Virus record (IMG/VR): IMGVR_UViG_641736163_000006
Source: a virus
Taxonomy: Duplodnaviria; Heunggongvirae; Uroviricota; Caudoviricetes
Direction: 5' to 3' (one strand)
DNA: 13,814 nucleotides
A model generated the notes under the pieces. That model saw only the letters and a program-made list of their open reading frames with translations, was not told the DNA's origin and searched no databases. Both the position numbers and the translations under genes were made by a program. Numbering within the stretch: the first letter of the stretch is position 1; the number at the start of each line of letters is the position of its first letter. Positions 1-8,933 of this stretch are shown piece after piece.

Positions 1-2913
1 TTAATTTCGTTTCAGATTAGCCAACGCTCGCAAAGGCCGCCTTTCCAGCTCGAATGTATCAATGAATCGCAATGAGGATCTGTCATCGATGAGTCCCAAT
101 GAGTCAATCAGCGCTTTACGCTCAGGTTCTCTCCATTGCCACAGGGGATGTGTAACGACTGCGCGCCAGAGTTCTTTTCCATCCTGAATTTCGGTAAGGA
201 CCGGTAATGAGTGCTCTTTTGACAATTTGATGGTTCCAGGTCGTAACGCCTCGACGTCTTCCGCCAGCTCAAATGCCCTGTCTCGCCACCCGACCATTTC
301 AGGATGAATCCAGTCATTGTCGTTCAAGCCGCAGGCGAATTCAGGTACTACCATTGCCCGTAAGTAGGCTATGCCTAAACGCCAGTCCAGTAAGCCGTGG
401 TACCGGCGGTTGCCATAACGTTGTATGCACTTGTAACAAGCAGTTTGGCATTGTGCGGGATGATCATTACTCAAGAAATCGACCATCGGCCAGTCGCTCT
501 TATTGTTCAGGATTTCATCCAGTAATGTGGCTACCAATGGAGGGTCGCCAGCAACCGATGGTTCGGCAAGCCGTCGGCATAATCCTGAACCGTTGATCAA
601 CGCGTCGGCGATTTGCAATATCGGTTTGCCGAAGTGCAACCGGGGTTCAAGCGTTTCGAACTCGTCTGGCGATACATCCAGATGGAGCGCGGCTTTATGC
701 GTTAATATTTGAGTCGCGCTGATAGCCGCCGCTCGCGTAGGCAAATTCATATATTCGCCGTATCTGGCGACCATATTCAGATTAAGGCGTTCATCGAATT
801 GCATTAACTCCAGGTGAAGCGACTCCGTCTCTTTGCTTGATACAAGCCCAAAGCTTTTCTTCTCTCCGGTGCACCGCCATCTAAAATTATTGCGCAGTCC
901 AGCCCAGTTTGAATCAATCGCCTGACTTCCTTTAATCGGCGATCGGTAGGTAGCTAAAGGAATCGGCACCTTTTGATCGCTCGCCAAATCAACGGTAAAG
1001 CGCTCTCCTTCTTTCTCCCCATTAATGGGCCCATCGTTAAGACGCAAAATAGTAACGCCGCCGCGCCGTACGATAAAAGAACCGCAACTTTCTGAGGCTC
1101 CTGTATGCAATACGGTCGCCGTAGTTTTTAACGACATACGGGTAAAGCTGTCCATCTCGTCCTTTGGCTCAAAATCTGTGCGGAAAGCGGCAGGCGTGAT
1201 ATAGAGTTCGAATTCGTCCGGGCTGATCGGCGTATCGCAATCCTTGCAGTTAATGTCACTATCAGGTTGACTTTGCTCCAGCTTTGCCGAACCGCATGCC
1301 GGACAAATCGCGACATAGTGACTCGATTCCAGCCATGAACATACCGTCGAGAGATCTGATACACGGTTGTCCTGGACCTGGGGTTCCCGATAATTGCCGG
1401 TGAAGCCGATCACCTCATGCTTTTTCTTATCCTTGATCAATACCGAACCAGGAGCATACTCAAAAACCGCAAGGTCAAGATCGCGATCCATCGTTGACCA
1501 TTCGTATTCGGTTTGGTCATTCGCACCTTTTGTTTTGCGTAATCCCAGATAAAGGTTGCGTACCCGAGTCGGCATTCCATACATCGGCAATAGCCCTCGC
1601 TCAGCCAGAAAACAAGCAAGCCCTGTATTATCGTCAGGAGCGGAAGTTCCCAATCCCGCGATTTCTTCGATTATTTTTTCAGCGTTGATTGCGGAATAAA
1701 GGCGTTGGCGTTGACCGGGGGCGAACGTTGCGGCTTCGATAAAACGCTCACGTATATTCTGAGTCGCCTCCAGCGCGCTGTACAATAGTTTGGCCCAGTC
1801 AGCTTTATCATCATGATAGTAATCATGCGTTGAAACATATTCGCCATGAATATCAGGCGGTACGAGTTTATCGCCAGGGAATGTTATTTTGTTCTTACGG
1901 CATTCTTCACGCAGAAGATTAAATGCGCTTCTGAGCCAAATTTTCCGCAGAAGTCTTTTGGGTATATCATCATGATCGACCGCCAGGAAGGGCGGCGGCG
2001 GCGGATCGCCGGTGATCGCGTGAGGGTGTGCGAAATAGTAAGCATCATGAGTACGCCCGCGACAAAACGTGATAACGAAAGAAAATGCCTGGCCGCGTCG
2101 TCCGGCGCGACCGACGCGCTGCTGGTAATTAAATCGCTGGGGCGGCATGTTGGCCTGATAAACTGACTGAAGCGAACCGATATCAATACCGACTTCCATC
2201 GTTGTGGTAACGGCAAGCATATCGATTTCCGCATCCAGTTTTTCAAGTTCGCTCATCTTATCGACGAAAATCCCCTTGAATTTACGCAACCGCTCGGAAA
2301 AATCATCCGTTTGCCCGGTCAATTCTTCGACGTTCAACCGGAAACGTTTAACACCATCTCGTTCCCCGCGCACGATGCGTTTGCCAAGAAAATTGTCTTC
2401 CCATAGCTTTTCAACGACGCCGCTGGGTTCAATATTGAGCGGATTTACGCAACGGGTACAATGCTTAAACCCTAAATGTAAGTGAATTCGTCCGCAGTTG
2501 CTGCATTGCCAGTAATGATCGCCAGGTTTAGCGACCTTAAGAAACAATTTGCCGATACTAATTAATCCCGCCGTATGTTTCAGATCAGCAAACTGCTTTA
2601 AGATACTCGTCAGACCTTCCTGATAGAGGTTATCGCCGAATAAAACTCTGGCGACGCGCTTAACTTTCTCTTTGTCGACATTCGCTCCGACATGCCAGTC
2701 CCGGGTGCGGCTGGCGTCGAAATATTTATTTTCCTTAACGCGATAGACGCCGGAAAACACCCTCAGCCACGCATCGAGTTGCGGCATATCATCTTTACCA
2801 GCGATGCACGGATACGCCAGTCCAGTTTCTTCCAGCGCGAAAAAGATATTGGCGAAAATTACGTCGTCTATCAGTTCAAATTGATCATCGAATATTTTCG
2901 TTTTTATCTTCAT
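1..2913 (-). CDS. 5'-truncated SF2 helicase: C-terminal RecA-like domain plus long Zn-ribbon / DUF1998(MrfA)-like tail; defense-associated helicase remnant (DruE/MrfA-like, family not verified)
   Basis: 970-aa ORF with stop at 1-3. Helicase motif V (TTTMEVGIDIG) and motif VI (QRVGRAGRRGQ) lie about 235-275 aa from the Met. CxxC...CxxC clusters occur at WQCSNCGRIHLHLGFKHCTRC and CPACG...CKDC, and the tail has CQTACYKC...LDWRLG. No Walker A (GxxxxGK[ST]) or DExH motif anywhere, so the ATPase RecA1 domain is missing. The minus-strand frame stays open from 2913 up to 3099 across the IS1 junction, and there is no SD before the ATG at 2913. Confidence 0.6.
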   Translation of the reverse strand: MKIKTKIFDDQFELIDDVIFANIFFALEETGLAYPCIAGKDDMPQLDAWLRVFSGVYRVKENKYFDASRTRDWHVGANVDKEKVKRVARVLFGDNLYQEGLTSILKQFADLKHTAGLISIGKLFLKVAKPGDHYWQCSNCGRIHLHLGFKHCTRCVNPLNIEPSGVVEKLWEDNFLGKRIVRGERDGVKRFRLNVEELTGQTDDFSERLRKFKGIFVDKMSELEKLDAEIDMLAVTTTMEVGIDIGSLQSVYQANMPPQRFNYQQRVGRAGRRGQAFSFVITFCRGRTHDAYYFAHPHAITGDPPPPPFLAVDHDDIPKRLLRKIWLRSAFNLLREECRKNKITFPGDKLVPPDIHGEYVSTHDYYHDDKADWAKLLYSALEATQNIRERFIEAATFAPGQRQRLYSAINAEKIIEEIAGLGTSAPDDNTGLACFLAERGLLPMYGMPTRVRNLYLGLRKTKGANDQTEYEWSTMDRDLDLAVFEYAPGSVLIKDKKKHEVIGFTGNYREPQVQDNRVSDLSTVCSWLESSHYVAICPACGSAKLEQSQPDSDINCKDCDTPISPDEFELYITPAAFRTDFEPKDEMDSFTRMSLKTTATVLHTGASESCGSFIVRRGGVTILRLNDGPINGEKEGERFTVDLASDQKVPIPLATYRSPIKGSQAIDSNWAGLRNNFRWRCTGEKKSFGLVSSKETESLHLELMQFDERLNLNMVARYGEYMNLPTRAAAISATQILTHKAALHLDVSPDEFETLEPRLHFGKPILQIADALINGSGLCRRLAEPSVAGDPPLVATLLDEILNNKSDWPMVDFLSNDHPAQCQTACYKCIQRYGNRRYHGLLDWRLGIAYLRAMVVPEFACGLNDNDWIHPEMVGWRDRAFELAEDVEALRPGTIKLSKEHSLPVLTEIQDGKELWRAVVTHPLWQWREPERKALIDSLGLIDDRSSLRFIDTFELERRPLRALANLKRN

Positions 2914-3066
2914 TTTTTCAGAAGAAGGAAGTCTTTCACTGTATTTAATGATTTCATCTTCTTTAATGAAATTAGCATACCAAACAGTACTATCATCTTC
3001 TTCTGAATTAGGGTGATGCTGCCAACTTACTGATTTAGTGTATGATGGTGTTTTTGAGGTGCTCCA

Positions 3067-3342
3067 GTGGCTTCTGTTTCTATTAGCTGTCCCTCCTGTT
3101 CAGCTACTGACGGGGTGGTGCGTAACGGCAAAAGCACCGCCGGACATCAGCGCTATCTCTGCTCTCACTGCCGTAAAACATGGCAACTGCAGTTCACTTA
3201 CACCGCTTCTCAACCCGGTACGCACCAGAAAATCATTGATATGGCCATGAATGGCGTTGGATGCCGGGCAACTGCCCGCATTATGGGCGTTGGCCTCAAC
3301 ACGATTTTACGTCACTTAAAAAACTCAGGCCGCAGTCGGTAA
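3067..3342 (+). CDS. insA: IS1 InsA (transposition inhibitor / N-terminal part of InsAB' transposase)
   Basis: 91-aa product [22 protein letters not shown]...LKNSGRSR recognised as IS1 InsA; GTG start. Confidence 0.9.
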
Positions 3343-3764
3343 CCTCGCGCATACAGCCGGGCAGTGACGTCATCGTCTGCGCGGAAATGGACGAACAGTG
3401 GGGCTATGTCGGGGCTAAATCGCGCCAGCGCTGGCTGTTTTACGCGTATGACAGTCTCCGGAAGACGGTTGTTGCGCACGTATTCGGTGAACGCACTATG
3501 GCGACGCTGGGGCATCTTATGAGCCTGCTGTCACCCTTTGACGTGGTGATATGGATGACGGATGGCTGGCCGCTGTATGAATCCCGCCTGAAGGGAAAGC
3601 TGCACGTAATCAGCAAGCGATATACGCAGCGAATTGAGCGGCATAACCTGAATCTGAGGCAGCACCTGGCACGGCTGGGACGGAAGTCGCTGTCGTTCTC
3701 AAAATCGGTGGAGCTGCATGACAAAGTCATCGGGCATTATCTGAACATAAAACACTATCAATAA
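3261..3764 (+). CDS. insB: IS1 InsB reading frame (expressed as InsAB' fusion by -1 frameshift)
   Basis: 167-aa frame ending ...HYLNIKHYQ, overlapping the insA 3' end in the -1 frame, as in IS1. Confidence 0.9.
3318..3324 (+). promoter_or_regulatory. A6C slippery heptamer for programmed -1 ribosomal frameshift (insA to insB)
   Basis: AAAAAAC lies within the insA/insB overlap (sequence TTAAAAAACTC), the established IS1 frameshift site. Confidence 0.7.
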
Positions 3765-3779
3765 GTTGGAGTCATTACC

Positions 3780-5016
3780 TAAGGAGTTGATTGGCAAATT
3801 TCGTTTATTGCCGAAAAAATTAACCACAAAGGAAAAAGATGAATCCAAAAATGGACACGTTCATTTTTCTAACCCTAAACGAGCAGCCGACCATTTATTT
3901 AAGAATTTTGATCTGATACCAGAGTTTCGTATTATTGGCGACTTCCCGGTTGATAGTCACATTATCTCTGCGCTATGGATTAACATGGTCGGGCATAAAT
4001 TTGATGCCAGCTTAGATAACTGTTGCTATGGCGCGCGGCTAAAACGTATTCGTAATGATGAATTGTTTAGCAATGAGCAGGATAATCCATTCCATATCAG
4101 TGCTGTGGGTTCTTTTAGCTCCTACTTCCAGCCCTACCAAAAATGGCGTGGTGATGGCTTAAAAGCTATACGTGACGAACTGGAAAAAGATCACGATATT
4201 ATCGCCGCTTCACTGGATTTAAAAAGTTACTATCATTTTATTGATCCACTGGCTATAACTTCTGACGATCTCTGTGACGCGCTAAACGTAAAACTGACTG
4301 AGGATGAAAAAGCGTTTACTGAACAGTTAGCAATATTCTTAAAGCACTGGTCTGACGGCGCAGCAACGTTTGGAAAGAAAATAGCGTACAAAACACCAGT
4401 TATTAATGGTGGTCTGGTCATTGGATTGACGGCCAGTCGGATCATATCTAATATACTGCTACACCAGTGGGATAAATTAGTCATTGAGAAACTATCGCCG
4501 ATCCACTACGGTCGTTATGTCGATGATATGTTCCTCGTGATACGCGATACAGGTAAAATTACTAATAATCACGAATTTATGTTATTGCTGCAAGAGCGGC
4601 TTGGCAACGATTGCATTAGCCAGAAAAACGGGCAAGAACAGATATGGCAAATACAGCAGGGTGAGCAGTTTCAGGGTAAGACTACCATCCAGTTACAATC
4701 CGATAAGCAAAAACTTTTCGTGCTTCAGGGGCGGGCGGGAATAGACCTGCTCGACAGTATCGAAAAGGAGATCTACGAGCTTTCTAGTGAACACCGCTTG
4801 ATGCCTTCACCGGATCAACTGGAACACTCCACCGCGGCTAAAGTCCTTTCCGCTGCCGGTAGCGTGGGTGAAAATGCCGATACTCTGCGCCGTGCGGATG
4901 GATTAACCATCCGTCGTTTGGGCTGGTCACTGCAATTACGCTACGTTGAAACACTGGCGCGAGATCTGCCTCCAGGTGAATGGAAAGAACAGCGGGAAGA
5001 GTTTTATCAGTTTGCC
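3780..5016 (+). pseudogene. UG/Abi-type reverse transcriptase (DRT1-like), RT-domain fragment; 5' end removed at the IS1-A junction, 3' end interrupted by IS1-B
   Basis: RT motif A (IIAASLDLKSYYHFID), motif B-like (INGGLVIGLTASRIISNILL) and motif C (HYGRYVDDMFLV; YVDD at 4516-4527). The ORF-track start at 3766 is a TTG inside the IS1 end; the first native base is 3780 and no plausible native start follows. Confidence 0.75.
5008..5016 (+). repeat. Target-site duplication (left copy) of IS1 copy B: CAGTTTGCC
   Basis: Identical 9-mer directly flanks both ends of IS1-B (5008-5016 and 5785-5793). Confidence 0.85.
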
Positions 5017-5071
5017 GGTGATGCTGCCAACTTACTGATTTAGTGTATGATGGTGTTTTTGAGGTGCTCCA

Positions 5072-5347
5072 GTGGCTTCTGTTTCTATTAGCTGTCCCTC
5101 CTGTTCAGCTACTGACGGGGTGGTGCGTAACGGCAAAAGCACCGCCGGACATCAGCGCTATCTCTGCTCTCACTGCCGTAAAACATGGCAACTGCAGTTC
5201 ACTTACACCGCTTCTCAACCCGGTACGCACCAGAAAATCATTGATATGGCCATGAATGGCGTTGGATGCCGGGCAACTGCCCGCATTATGGGCGTTGGCC
5301 TCAACACGATTTTACGTCACTTAAAAAACTCAGGCCGCAGTCGGTAA
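5072..5347 (+). CDS. insA: IS1 InsA (copy B)
   Basis: Protein identical to copy A InsA. Confidence 0.9.
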
Positions 5348-5769
5348 CCTCGCGCATACAGCCGGGCAGTGACGTCATCGTCTGCGCGGAAATGGACGAA
5401 CAGTGGGGCTATGTCGGGGCTAAATCGCGCCAGCGCTGGCTGTTTTACGCGTATGACAGTCTCCGGAAGACGGTTGTTGCGCACGTATTCGGTGAACGCA
5501 CTATGGCGACGCTGGGGCATCTTATGAGCCTGCTGTCACCCTTTGACGTGGTGATATGGATGACGGATGGCTGGCCGCTGTATGAATCCCGCCTGAAGGG
5601 AAAGCTGCACGTAATCAGCAAGCGATATACGCAGCGAATTGAGCGGCATAACCTGAATCTGAGGCAGCACCTGGCACGGCTGGGACGGAAGTCGCTGTCG
5701 TTCTCAAAATCGGTGGAGCTGCATGACAAAGTCATCGGGCATTATCTGAACATAAAACACTATCAATAA
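5266..5769 (+). CDS. insB: IS1 InsB reading frame (copy B)
   Basis: Protein identical to copy A InsB. Confidence 0.9.
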
Positions 5770-5784
5770 GTTGGAGTCATTACC

Positions 5785-5793
5785 CAGTTTGCC
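5785..5793 (+). repeat. Target-site duplication (right copy) of IS1 copy B: CAGTTTGCC
   Basis: See the left copy at 5008-5016. Confidence 0.85.
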
Positions 5794-7566
5794 TACAACC
5801 ATATTCTTAGGGCCGATAATCTATTTGCACATTTTAGTTATCTGCCAAGGTTGCTTGGCTTTGCTATCAGTATGAATGAATGGCAGCACGCGGAAAAAAT
5901 TGTACTTAAAGCTTACGAATCCATCAATCTGCTGGCCTCGGTGATTACCTCAGGCAAGGAAGTGACTATAAATGGTTGCAAAACTCGAGCAGTAAATGAT
6001 CTTTGGCGTTGTATAAAAGGCACCTTAAGCTGGCTATTTGTTGATGCAGCAACACGATATTACAATCCTGATAAATTATTTCTTGATAAACATTCCAAGA
6101 AAGAAGAGTGTCTTGCGGATACATTTTTTAATCATATTTCACAAAGCCTGACAAACCTAAAGGATTTACTGGATCTTCGTTTTGATTCAGCAGACTTTTA
6201 TTTAAAAGTGCCATTGGTAGCTCGGGCTGACTTAGCAAAAGAACCTTATAAACAGATCGTAAAGAGTCAGTCCGCAGAAAAACTTGTTAATCAGCGTGAT
6301 AGTAAAAAAGAAGCTAAAATACTGAAATTAATGAGCACTTCATCGCTTATTGATATTGATGTTATTAAGCTATTTTTGAAATCAACCAAGAATACCCGAC
6401 TGGAAAAAGTGGCTAAAGGAAATCGTAAGAATGAGAGTTACTTACCTTACATTTTCCCTACACGTCCTTTAACACCCGCTGAAATATCTGAACTGGCCCC
6501 CGAATGTGTTGGATTACCCTCCAGATACGACAAAAACTCAGATGGAAGGCCGTCCACTATTTGGGCCAAATATACGCAAGCATTACGTGGAGTATGGATC
6601 AAACCGACATTGCTGGCATCGGAGCAAGACTCAGACGAAGCGACAAAAACAGTTCGGCCTAAGAAATTCATTCATATTGGTACAGACAGGAAACATAAAA
6701 TTGTCGTTGCGCTAACCAGCATCAAAACCGATGAGGACGACTGGGCTAAAATGGCCTGTAACAAATCTAACCTGTCCCGTTCAAGGTATCAGCGGATTTC
6801 TGAACTGGTTAATGCAACATTGAAACTGTCGCCTAAACCCGATTATGTTTTATTCCCTGAGCTTTCAATTCCGTTACGTTGGGTTAACAGTATTGCCGAT
6901 CGTTTGAGTTCGGCGGGTATCAGTCTGATTGCGGGGACGGAATACCGCCACTTTGACGATAATCAACTGAAGAGTGAAGCAGTGCTTGTCCTGTCAGATA
7001 ACCGACTCGGCTATCCGGCGAGTGTCAAAATATGGCAACCCAAGCTGGAACCCGCTGTAGGTGAAGATGAGGCATTGTTTTCAACGTTTGGTAAGTCCTG
7101 GGCATTTTCAACGCTTAATCCGAAACATCGTAAACCTGTATATATTCATCACGGCGTCAATTTTGGCGTTATGATTTGCTCTGAACTCCAGAACAGCAAA
7201 GCAAGGATCCGGTTTCAGGGCGCGGTCGACGCATTGATGGTATTGAGCTGGAATAAAGATCTGGATACGTTTGCATCGTTGATTGAATCAGCAGCGCTGG
7301 ATGTTCATGCCTATACCATCTTGGTGAATAACCGAAAATATGGCGACAGCCGGGTACGTTCTCCGGCAAAAGAATCCTTTATGCGCGATATTGCCCGCGT
7401 GAAGGGCGGTGATAATGACTTTGTGGTTGCTGCAACGCTGGATATCGATGCGTTAAGGGCATTCCAGAGCAGGGCAAAACGCTGGTCTAAAGATGGCGAT
7501 AAATTCAAGCCATTGCCTGAAGGATTCCAGTTGGCAAAGAATCGTAAAAAACTACCGCCAAAATAA
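5785..7566 (+). pseudogene. 3' portion of the same RT gene: helical linker plus C-terminal nitrilase-like (C-N hydrolase) domain
   Basis: Frame continues from the 3780-5016 fragment once IS1-B and one duplication copy (777 bp, a multiple of 3) are removed. Nitrilase-like triad: E in YVLFPELSIP (6859-6861), K in SVKIWQPKLEP, C in GVNFGVMICSELQ (7177-7179). Stop at 7564-7566. Confidence 0.65.
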
Positions 7567-7692
7567 GAAACTGATTTCGTTATTATAGATCAGGGTATTT
7601 TTGCGTGAGAGGCCGGAAAACAGGATGTCGCCCCTGTGTAAGTTCACAGAGATATTGCAATTGCCTCCGGATAAGTAAGGGGAGATTGCACT

Positions 7693-8739
7693 ATGCAAAT
7701 GCAGCATCTGATGGTTGGCTATCCTAAGTACTACCAAACGGCCGATTATGCGTTGAGGCTTTCAGTGATGGCTGATATAGCAACAATGAGAATGAAGGCT
7801 CTGCACTTCTGGGATAAACACGGTATTTCTGCAGCTTCTGAAGCCTTTGGCGTGTCCTGCCGCACGCTTTACTGGTGGCGTCAGTTACTGAACAAGGAAG
7901 GACCTGAGGGGCTAATCCCGCACAGTAAGGCACCTCTGGTGCGACGAAAAAAACACTGGCATCCCGATGTGCTGAAAGAGATTCGACGCCTCAGGACAGA
8001 GCTGCCGAACCTCGGTAAAGAGCAGATTTTTGTTCGCCTGAAGCCCTGGTGCGAACAGCGCTATCTGGCCTGTCCGAGTGTTTCCACCATCGGCAGAATG
8101 ATCGCTGCCGCACATGATAAAATGCGGATGATACCTGTGCGTCTGGGATCGCGGGGGAAGGCACTGCTTGTCAAAAAGCGGTCTGCCAAACCCCGCAGGC
8201 CAAAGCACTCCCGCCCGGTAAAGACAGGTGAGCTCATTGGGATGGACGCCATTGAGCTCAGAATGGGCGAACTGCGTCGCTATGTCATCACCATGATCGA
8301 CGAATGCAGCAATTACGCGCTGGCGCTGGCTGTGCCGTCACTCAACAGTGATATCGTCAATCACTTCTTCAGCCGCGCAGCCCGGTTGTTCCCGGTCGGT
8401 ATCAGCCAGATAATCACAGATAATGGAAAAGAGTTCCTGGGAAACTTCGACAAAACGCTGCAGGAAGCCGCTATCAAACACCTCTGGACCTATCCCTACA
8501 CGCCAAAAATGAACGCTATCTGTGAACGTTTTAACCGGACGTTAAGAGAGCAGTTTATTGAATTTAATGAGATTTTACTCTTTGAAGATCTGGCGCTATT
8601 TAACCAGAAGCTGGCGGAATATCTGGTGCTGTATAACAGCAAAAGACCCCACAAGGCGCTCGCACTAATGACGCCCGTGGAATATATTTTAAAAGAGAAT
8701 AAAAATTGCAATATGTGGTGGACCCATACATCTCCTTGA
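7693..8739 (+). CDS. DDE-type transposase with N-terminal HTH and integrase-core (rve-like) domain; IS481-family-like
   Basis: 348-aa ORF with SD GGGGAG 8 nt upstream. Single frame carrying an HTH (GVSCRTLYWWRQ) and DDE-like signatures (MIDECS ... ITDNGKEF ... ICERFNRTLREQ), an architecture typical of IS481-family transposases. Element ends not identified. Confidence 0.75.
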   Translation: MQMQHLMVGYPKYYQTADYALRLSVMADIATMRMKALHFWDKHGISAASEAFGVSCRTLYWWRQLLNKEGPEGLIPHSKAPLVRRKKHWHPDVLKEIRRLRTELPNLGKEQIFVRLKPWCEQRYLACPSVSTIGRMIAAAHDKMRMIPVRLGSRGKALLVKKRSAKPRRPKHSRPVKTGELIGMDAIELRMGELRRYVITMIDECSNYALALAVPSLNSDIVNHFFSRAARLFPVGISQIITDNGKEFLGNFDKTLQEAAIKHLWTYPYTPKMNAICERFNRTLREQFIEFNEILLFEDLALFNQKLAEYLVLYNSKRPHKALALMTPVEYILKENKNCNMWWTHTSP

Positions 8740-8793
8740 CCTTTTGGTCCGTAAGAGGCTAATCTCTATGTGTCGCATAGATATGGCCTCAGA

Positions 8794-8879
8794 TTAACAT
8801 TAAGCGTCTTGCAGGACGCGTAATGTTAACTGGGGCTTTTCTCTATCTGCCTTTTGGTGTTCATGCCTGAGGCAGATAG
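8794..8879 (+). repeat. Two adjacent strong inverted repeats (hairpins) of unknown function
   Basis: Hairpin 1 at 8794-8829: TTAACATTAAGCGTC / loop TTGCAG / GACGCGTAATGTTAA, a 15-bp stem with one mismatch. Hairpin 2 at 8843-8879: CTATCTGCCT / 17-nt loop / AGGCAGATAG, a 10-bp stem. Confidence 0.5.
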
Positions 8880-8933
8880 CCTCAAGCACCCGCAGCAATT
8901 CTACTTAACTCCCGTCACCTCGCCAATATAAAA

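Follow-up and report, generated by a model that had tools for sequence, protein, structure and literature searches.

How did two identical copies of IS1 come to bracket a piece of one reverse transcriptase (RT)-nitrilase gene, and could that gene ever be restored? The locus lies in the window, that is, the whole 13,814-nucleotide stretch of DNA analysed here, and an earlier sequence-only reading of it concentrated on the right-hand copy of IS1 (copy B). The best explanation, and one that I regard as very nearly certain, is that a single, unremarkable transposition of IS1 gave rise to copy B in the ancestry of the type strain of Escherichia albertii (TW07627 / DSM 17582), at a place where the surrounding island has been dismantled and the RT gene would be irreversibly dead. 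The island, still whole in other strains of E. albertii, was taken apart by three or more IS events, among them an insertion, a 13.4-kb deletion and an inversion. The features on which the argument turns are the following.

1-3011, minus strand: druE, gene of the Druantia type II helicase; 3' half only, from about codon 944 to codon 1945 and the stop codon, cut at the junction with IS1 copy A
3012-3779, plus strand: IS1 copy A, complete at 768 bp, without a target-site duplication; marks the junction of a 13,435-bp deletion, druE nt 2830/2831 to RT nt 203/204
3780-5016, plus strand: fragment of the RT-nitrilase gene (UG5-large), starting at the third base of codon 68 and ending with codon 480; RT domain with YVDD; PADLOC RT_UG5-nitrilase match, 2.2e-129
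5008-5016, plus strand: left copy of the target-site duplication, CAGTTTGCC, codons 478-480 (Q-F-A); single-copy in genomes with the empty site
5017-5784, plus strand: IS1 copy B, a simple insertion; insA 5072-5347, insB' frame 5266-5769, motif TTAAAAAAC
5785-5793, plus strand: right copy of the target-site duplication, CAGTTTGCC, matching the left copy in sequence
5794-7566, plus strand: RT-nitrilase gene, codons 481-1070 plus the stop codon; middle region and C-terminal C-N hydrolase (nitrilase) domain; 564-aa open reading frame (ORF)
7635-8730, plus strand: IS481-family element, transposase ORF 7693-8739, 69 bp downstream of the RT stop codon; one of an inverted pair

Two identical copies of IS1

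Pairwise comparison of 3012-3779 with 5017-5784, each 768 bp long and in the same orientation, gave 0 differences (100% identity), just as the sequence-only reading had claimed, and the identity ends exactly at the element boundaries, extending 0 bp beyond them at either end. Both 768-bp copies run from GGTGATGCTGCC to GGAGTCATTACC, with terminal inverted repeats that match at 18 of 23 positions. Pfam recovered Zn_ribbon_InsA (1.3e-21), HTH_Tnp_IS1 (4.7e-31) and DDE_Tnp_IS1 (1.5e-77) in copy A, of which copy B is the same sequence, and the A6C frameshift motif is intact in each copy from element position 305. Both are genuine IS1 elements and are apparently competent for transposition. The best E. 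coli matches are annotated as IS1A family, with 99.9% nucleotide identity over all 768 bp. Copies A and B have in common a single variant, one nucleotide off the best E. coli copies listed, and this shared variant fits a common recent source.

The window copies are like the IS1 (IS1A-type) of Escherichia coli and Shigella in their length of 768 bp, their imperfect inverted repeats of about 23 bp, and their possession of insA and insB' with an A6C site for -1 frameshifting. They differ from it by the one-nucleotide variant and by their E. albertii host, and mechanistically there is no difference. The 9-bp target duplication that is typical of such elements is likewise found at copy B but not at copy A, because copy A sits at a deletion junction.

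Copy B and its empty site

The 9-mer CAGTTTGCC abuts copy B on both sides. It occurs only these two times in the window and nowhere on its reverse strand, and the chance of a 9-bp match across both sides of a given element is 4^-9, or about 4e-6. A query that represents the empty site, made of 400 bp from each side joined by one CAGTTTGCC, was searched against 5,426 complete E. coli genomes, 260 of which contain an uninterrupted match at about 95% identity in a gene annotated 'RNA-directed DNA polymerase'; in E. coli F2_81 the string reads GAGTTTTAT-CAGTTTGCC-TACAACCAT, exactly as predicted. The exact empty-site string is also present in two E. albertii strains, GCA_048985605.1 (single CAGTTTGCC at L006 11432-11440) and GCA_020443845.1 (single CAGTTTGCC at L014rc 10531-10539), in both of which the flanks are 99.8% identical to those in the window. 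Neither the filled junction nor the empty-site string turned up in a scan of the species-representative genomes; the gene is accessory and is absent from those representatives.

The sequence-only reading had taken copy B for a clean, simple insertion that duplicated 9 bp of its target, and had expected related genomes to carry an empty site with a single CAGTTTGCC. Both statements are borne out, and I found nothing that contradicts the simple-insertion reading. On established IS1 biology, the transposase InsAB' would have been made via a -1 frameshift at the A6C motif and would have cut the target in a staggered way, 9 bp apart, and repair of the staggered cuts would then have duplicated CAGTTTGCC.

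Multicopy IS1 repeats often break or mis-join assemblies, and the structure might in principle be an artefact of repeat mis-joining around IS1. The probability of this is negligible. Window positions 1-12913 are 100% identical in CH991859.1 (E. albertii TW07627) and JALHKM010000002.1 (NBRC 107761 = DSM 17582), which are independent assemblies of the type strain, and draft assemblies contain the segment between the IS1 copies as a contig of its own, about 1.2-1.4 kb long, and their druE contigs terminate in IS1, breaks that fall at the expected places. A mis-join would moreover not be expected to create an exact target duplication. Collinearity with the intact gene, the two identical assemblies and the separate draft contig exclude an assembly artefact and a chance match alike.

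A different origin is suggested by the resemblance to Tn9, in which two identical direct IS1 copies likewise flank a short segment. Copy A, the 1,237-bp RT fragment and copy B could on that account be a composite transposon that was inserted as a unit. However, the bracketed DNA is native. Positions 3780-5016 are 99.8% identical to L006 10204-11440 and to L014rc 9303-10539, and positions 5794-7566 are collinear with L014rc 10540-12312; both the inner segment and what lies to the right of copy B are thus collinear with the intact conspecific RT gene, with a single 9-mer at the join. Furthermore, the outer flanks, CTGAATTAG and CAGTTTGCC, show no duplication, whereas copy B has one of its own. 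The likelihood of insertion as a unit is vanishingly small: collinearity with the native gene and the absence of an outer 9-bp duplication rule out a Tn9-like composite, and the structure arose in situ.

Copy B as a simple insertion lies exactly between codons 480 and 481 of the 1070-codon RT gene and separates the RT domain, which has its YVDD motif, from the C-terminal nitrilase domain. Removing it in silico together with one copy of the repeat gives an open frame of 1002 codons that ends at the stop codon at 7566. With copy B in place, the RT frame reads ...YQFA-GDAANLLI-stop and ends 8 codons into IS1. It had been claimed that the insertion preserves the host reading frame. The arithmetic is correct (768 + 9 = 777, which is divisible by 3), but the statement is biologically empty, given that the RT frame stops within the element. 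The sum is a multiple of 3 for every canonical IS1 insertion, and it merely restates that removal of the element restores the original sequence.

The interrupted gene is a UG5-large RT-nitrilase

The host gene had been called an RT-nitrilase from its sequence, and PADLOC agrees and places it more precisely in UG5-large. The 564-aa ORF to the right of copy B matches RT_UG5-nitrilase (2.8e-143) and RTasNitrilase (5.9e-44), and the intact E. albertii allele (1070 aa) matches RT_UG5-nitrilase (PDLC03780) with E=0 over residues 1-1069 and RTasNitrilase (2.2e-43) over residues 791-1059. Pfam gave no match to the full RT-nitrilase.

The Class 3 UG/Abi reverse transcriptases include UG5-large (PMC9226505), and anti-phage defence has been shown experimentally for the family (PMC13436386; PMC9226505). 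The window gene is like the UG5-large RT-nitrilase defence systems in its full-length profile match, its YVDD motif, its C-terminal nitrilase and its defence-island site next to an integrase. By family membership, the Escherichia allele is a putative anti-phage defence gene. Two members of the family are instructive as regards partner proteins. The UG5-large system of an E. coli P4-like satellite (E101) defends against phage with a transmembrane partner that is required there, according to work cited in PMC9226505, and a transmembrane partner is encoded downstream in a minority of UG5-large members (PMC9226505). By contrast, in the UG5-large system DRT11 of Sinorhizobium (S. meliloti), the RT-nitrilase alone defends against phage, without a transmembrane partner (PMC13436386). 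No such partner is evident downstream of the RT gene in the intact E. albertii L014, where the Kyte-Doolittle mean over 19 residues reaches at most 1.15 in a 156-aa ORF on the same strand, which is also without a PADLOC match. As regards the missing transmembrane partner, the E. albertii gene is nearer to DRT11 than to E101.

When the RT gene is reconstructed and compared with the intact E. albertii allele, 7 of 3010 nucleotides and 2 amino acids (S182P and V619A) differ, and there is no other lesion. Against E. coli, the reconstructed gene has a dN/dS of 0.09 and a dS of 0.27. The absence of any other lesion, the few differences and the low dN/dS together show that purifying selection acted on the RT gene until not long before IS elements struck it. 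The IS events are recent, as the sequence-only reading had also proposed: the two conspecific strains, with flanks that are 99.8% identical, lack both copies of IS1, and the gene has hardly diverged from its intact allele.

One of these two strains has a damaged gene of its own. In GCA_048985605.1 (L006 10001-12385), which otherwise looks ancestral, the RT-nitrilase is also shortened, to 794 aa, and homology to the window stops at about 6704-6708 (about codon 785). Its nitrilase domain was lost by a different rearrangement, which amounts to an independent inactivation of the RT-nitrilase gene.

Copy A and the missing 13.4 kb

Copy A has no target duplication around it, the flanks being CTGAATTAG on the left and TAAGGAGTT on the right. 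To its right, homology to the RT gene starts exactly at 3780, which is RT nt 204, the third base of codon 68. To its left is the 970-aa 'helicase' ORF (1-2913), which is the C-terminal part of DruE and begins at an internal Met, with the frame open up to base 3011. This ORF matches PADLOC DruE2 with E=0 over profile positions 969-1925 of 1928, and the window fragment of druE is 99.8% identical to L009 12831-15838, part of a full-length DruE of 1945 aa. Pfam gave only a weak Helicase_C match to the druE fragment. Megablast found no match to window 1-3011 in the 5,426 complete E. coli genomes, and this part was identified only via PADLOC and conspecific contigs.

In GCA_048985605.1 the two breakpoints at copy A (RT nt 203/204 and druE nt 2830/2831) are 13,435 bp apart on one contig. 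The interval between them, which is deleted in the window, contains the 5' half of druE, DruG2, DruF2, DruM2, a DUF4917 gene, a 156-aa ORF, an HTH_35 gene, AbiEii, AbiEi and RT codons 1-68. In the intact L009, DruM2 (4.5e-209) and DruF2, DruG2 and DruE2 (each E=0) are full-length PADLOC matches. The deletion at copy A would be the work either of IS1 itself, as an adjacent deletion, or of recombination between two directly repeated copies of IS1, and both routes give the same product.

IS1-mediated adjacent deletions and recombination between IS1 copies are classic in the gal and lac regions. Copy A is like those cases in being an intact IS1 without a duplication, one end of which abuts DNA that is 13.4 kb away in intact strains. 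Either route yields the end product seen at copy A, and there is no intermediate strain among the assemblies found.

Is the missing DNA gone, or has it moved? An inversion or translocation between IS1 copies would leave the 13.4 kb elsewhere in the genome. The absence of a target duplication is equally expected from recombination between IS1 copies, and the region does contain an inversion mediated by an IS481-family element. Against this, neither RT codons 1-68, nor AbiE, nor anything else from the missing interval was found within 10 kb on either side in the type strain. Furthermore, the 90% clusters of DruF, DruG and DruM contain proteins from other E. albertii strains only and no type-strain accession (EDS... 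or MCJ2196...). Because these clusters contain no type-strain protein, the evidence favours true loss of the 13.4 kb over relocation, which I consider very unlikely.

Given the copy A deletion, the RT gene would be irreversibly dead, because copy A marks a deletion rather than a simple insertion. It had been proposed that the interrupted gene could revert only by precise excision of copy B. This does not hold. With codons 1-68 and the upstream DNA lost in the 13,435-bp deletion, excision of copy B would leave the gene without a start codon or its native upstream sequence and would not revive it. Recombination of A with B across their 768-bp direct repeats would instead delete a further 2,005 bp, and such an event would be expected to be much likelier than precise excision. 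Since the RT gene is beyond reversion, copy B has no independent functional consequence today.

In the type strain, the ORFs that bear the annotations 'helicase', 'RNA-directed DNA polymerase' and 'CN hydrolase domain protein' accordingly represent fragments of two genes destroyed by IS1, the Druantia II gene druE and one RT-nitrilase gene, and should be treated as pseudogenes.

Did copy B come first? As noted above, the reconstructed coding sequence is otherwise undamaged and only two amino acids separate it from the intact allele, so the gene was intact until very recently, and copy B may have been the inactivating hit on a working RT-nitrilase gene (perhaps selected because the defence was costly); the copy A deletion would then have followed later. 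This order is quite possible but falls somewhat short of probable. Nothing speaks in its favour among the assemblies: every assembly found with the A or the B event appears to carry both, and the end state is the same in either order.

The ancestral island and its inverted remnant

In GCA_020443845.1 and in several read-set assemblies the gene order of GCA_048985605.1 recurs, namely integrase - HTH - 156 aa - RT (1070 aa) - AbiEi - AbiEii - HTH_35 - DUF4917 - DruM - DruF - DruG - DruE - Vsr, and this recurrence shows the order to be ancestral. As in Druantia type II, DruM-DruF-DruG-DruE are together in intact E. albertii strains, with vsr downstream. The window keeps only the C-terminal 1002 codons of druE, and the system is not present there.

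The IS481-family element downstream of the RT remnant (annotated in E. coli as 'IS481 family transposase') has a second copy, 99.8% identical and inverted, located 567-1671 bp to the left of the window start (L003 13481-14585). In the intact arrangement the hexamer GCCCCT occurs once, at L014rc 12376-12381, and after it come the 156-aa ORF, the HTH gene and the integrase. The type strain has GCCCCT at window 7630-7635 and its reverse complement outside the other IS481-family copy, where the downstream genes continue in inverted orientation. With GCCCCT split across both copies and the downstream genes inverted, a segment of about 8.2 kb that includes vsr, the druE remnant, IS1 copy A, the RT fragments and IS1 copy B has been inverted between the IS481-family copies. 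The inversion at the IS481 flanks is also seen in comparison with E. coli 042. The pair of elements would have inverted the remnant after the copy A deletion. The other pair of IS481 flanks (GACCAC... by vsr and TCTCCT... by the SIR2 gene) shows no matching duplication, and only one of the two original insertions can be reconstructed.

Taken with the insertion and the deletion, this makes the locus a case of ordinary IS-driven erosion of a defence island: a textbook event by a textbook element. Its significance is small beyond correct annotation. What the reanalysis adds is the identity of the host gene as UG5-large, the recognition of the 'helicase' as half of DruE, the 13.4-kb deletion at the sister IS1 and the IS481-mediated inversion. 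The locus is a clean, fully reconstructible case in which a handful of IS events wiped out a multi-system defence island, and it leaves the reference strain of the species without defences that other strains have kept, which is relevant to the choice of strain for phage work. That the stepwise, IS-driven loss of the UG5-large RT-nitrilase, AbiE and Druantia II in the type-strain lineage was selected rather than neutral seems to me unlikely. If it were, the possible gains would be relief from a cost of abortive infection or autoimmunity, or the uptake of prophage or plasmid DNA. The type strain would then form, with intact conspecific strains, a natural near-isogenic series in which an Escherichia UG5-large RT-nitrilase without a transmembrane partner could be tested.

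Several smaller observations concern the genes around the island. The 156-aa ORF downstream of the RT gene in the intact island (L014 3655-4125; L003 14861-15331; L006 7068-7538) has no PADLOC match and no transmembrane segment, and a second ORF of 156 aa lies between druM and AbiEii. In GCA_020443845.1, where the RT gene is intact, DruG is called at 591 aa against 684 aa and Vsr at 98 aa against 135 aa (L010 7986-9761 and 15930-16226), and other parts of the island may be decaying in that strain. The transposase ORF of the IS481-family element is not closed within the element; it runs to the very edge and borrows its final codons and stop from the adjoining DNA (7693-8739; L003 13540-14595), which is why the two copies encode transposases of 348 aa and 351 aa. 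Finally, window 9094-13814 is a fragment of a lambdoid prophage that matches prophage regions in some E. coli genomes at 99% identity, and it adjoins the RT remnant only because of the inversion. It contains a SIR2-family gene (9094-10125, with weak SIR2_2 and PADLOC SIR2 matches), a 339-aa ORF, a YdaT-like gene and an HTH_3 repressor-like (DicA-like) gene.
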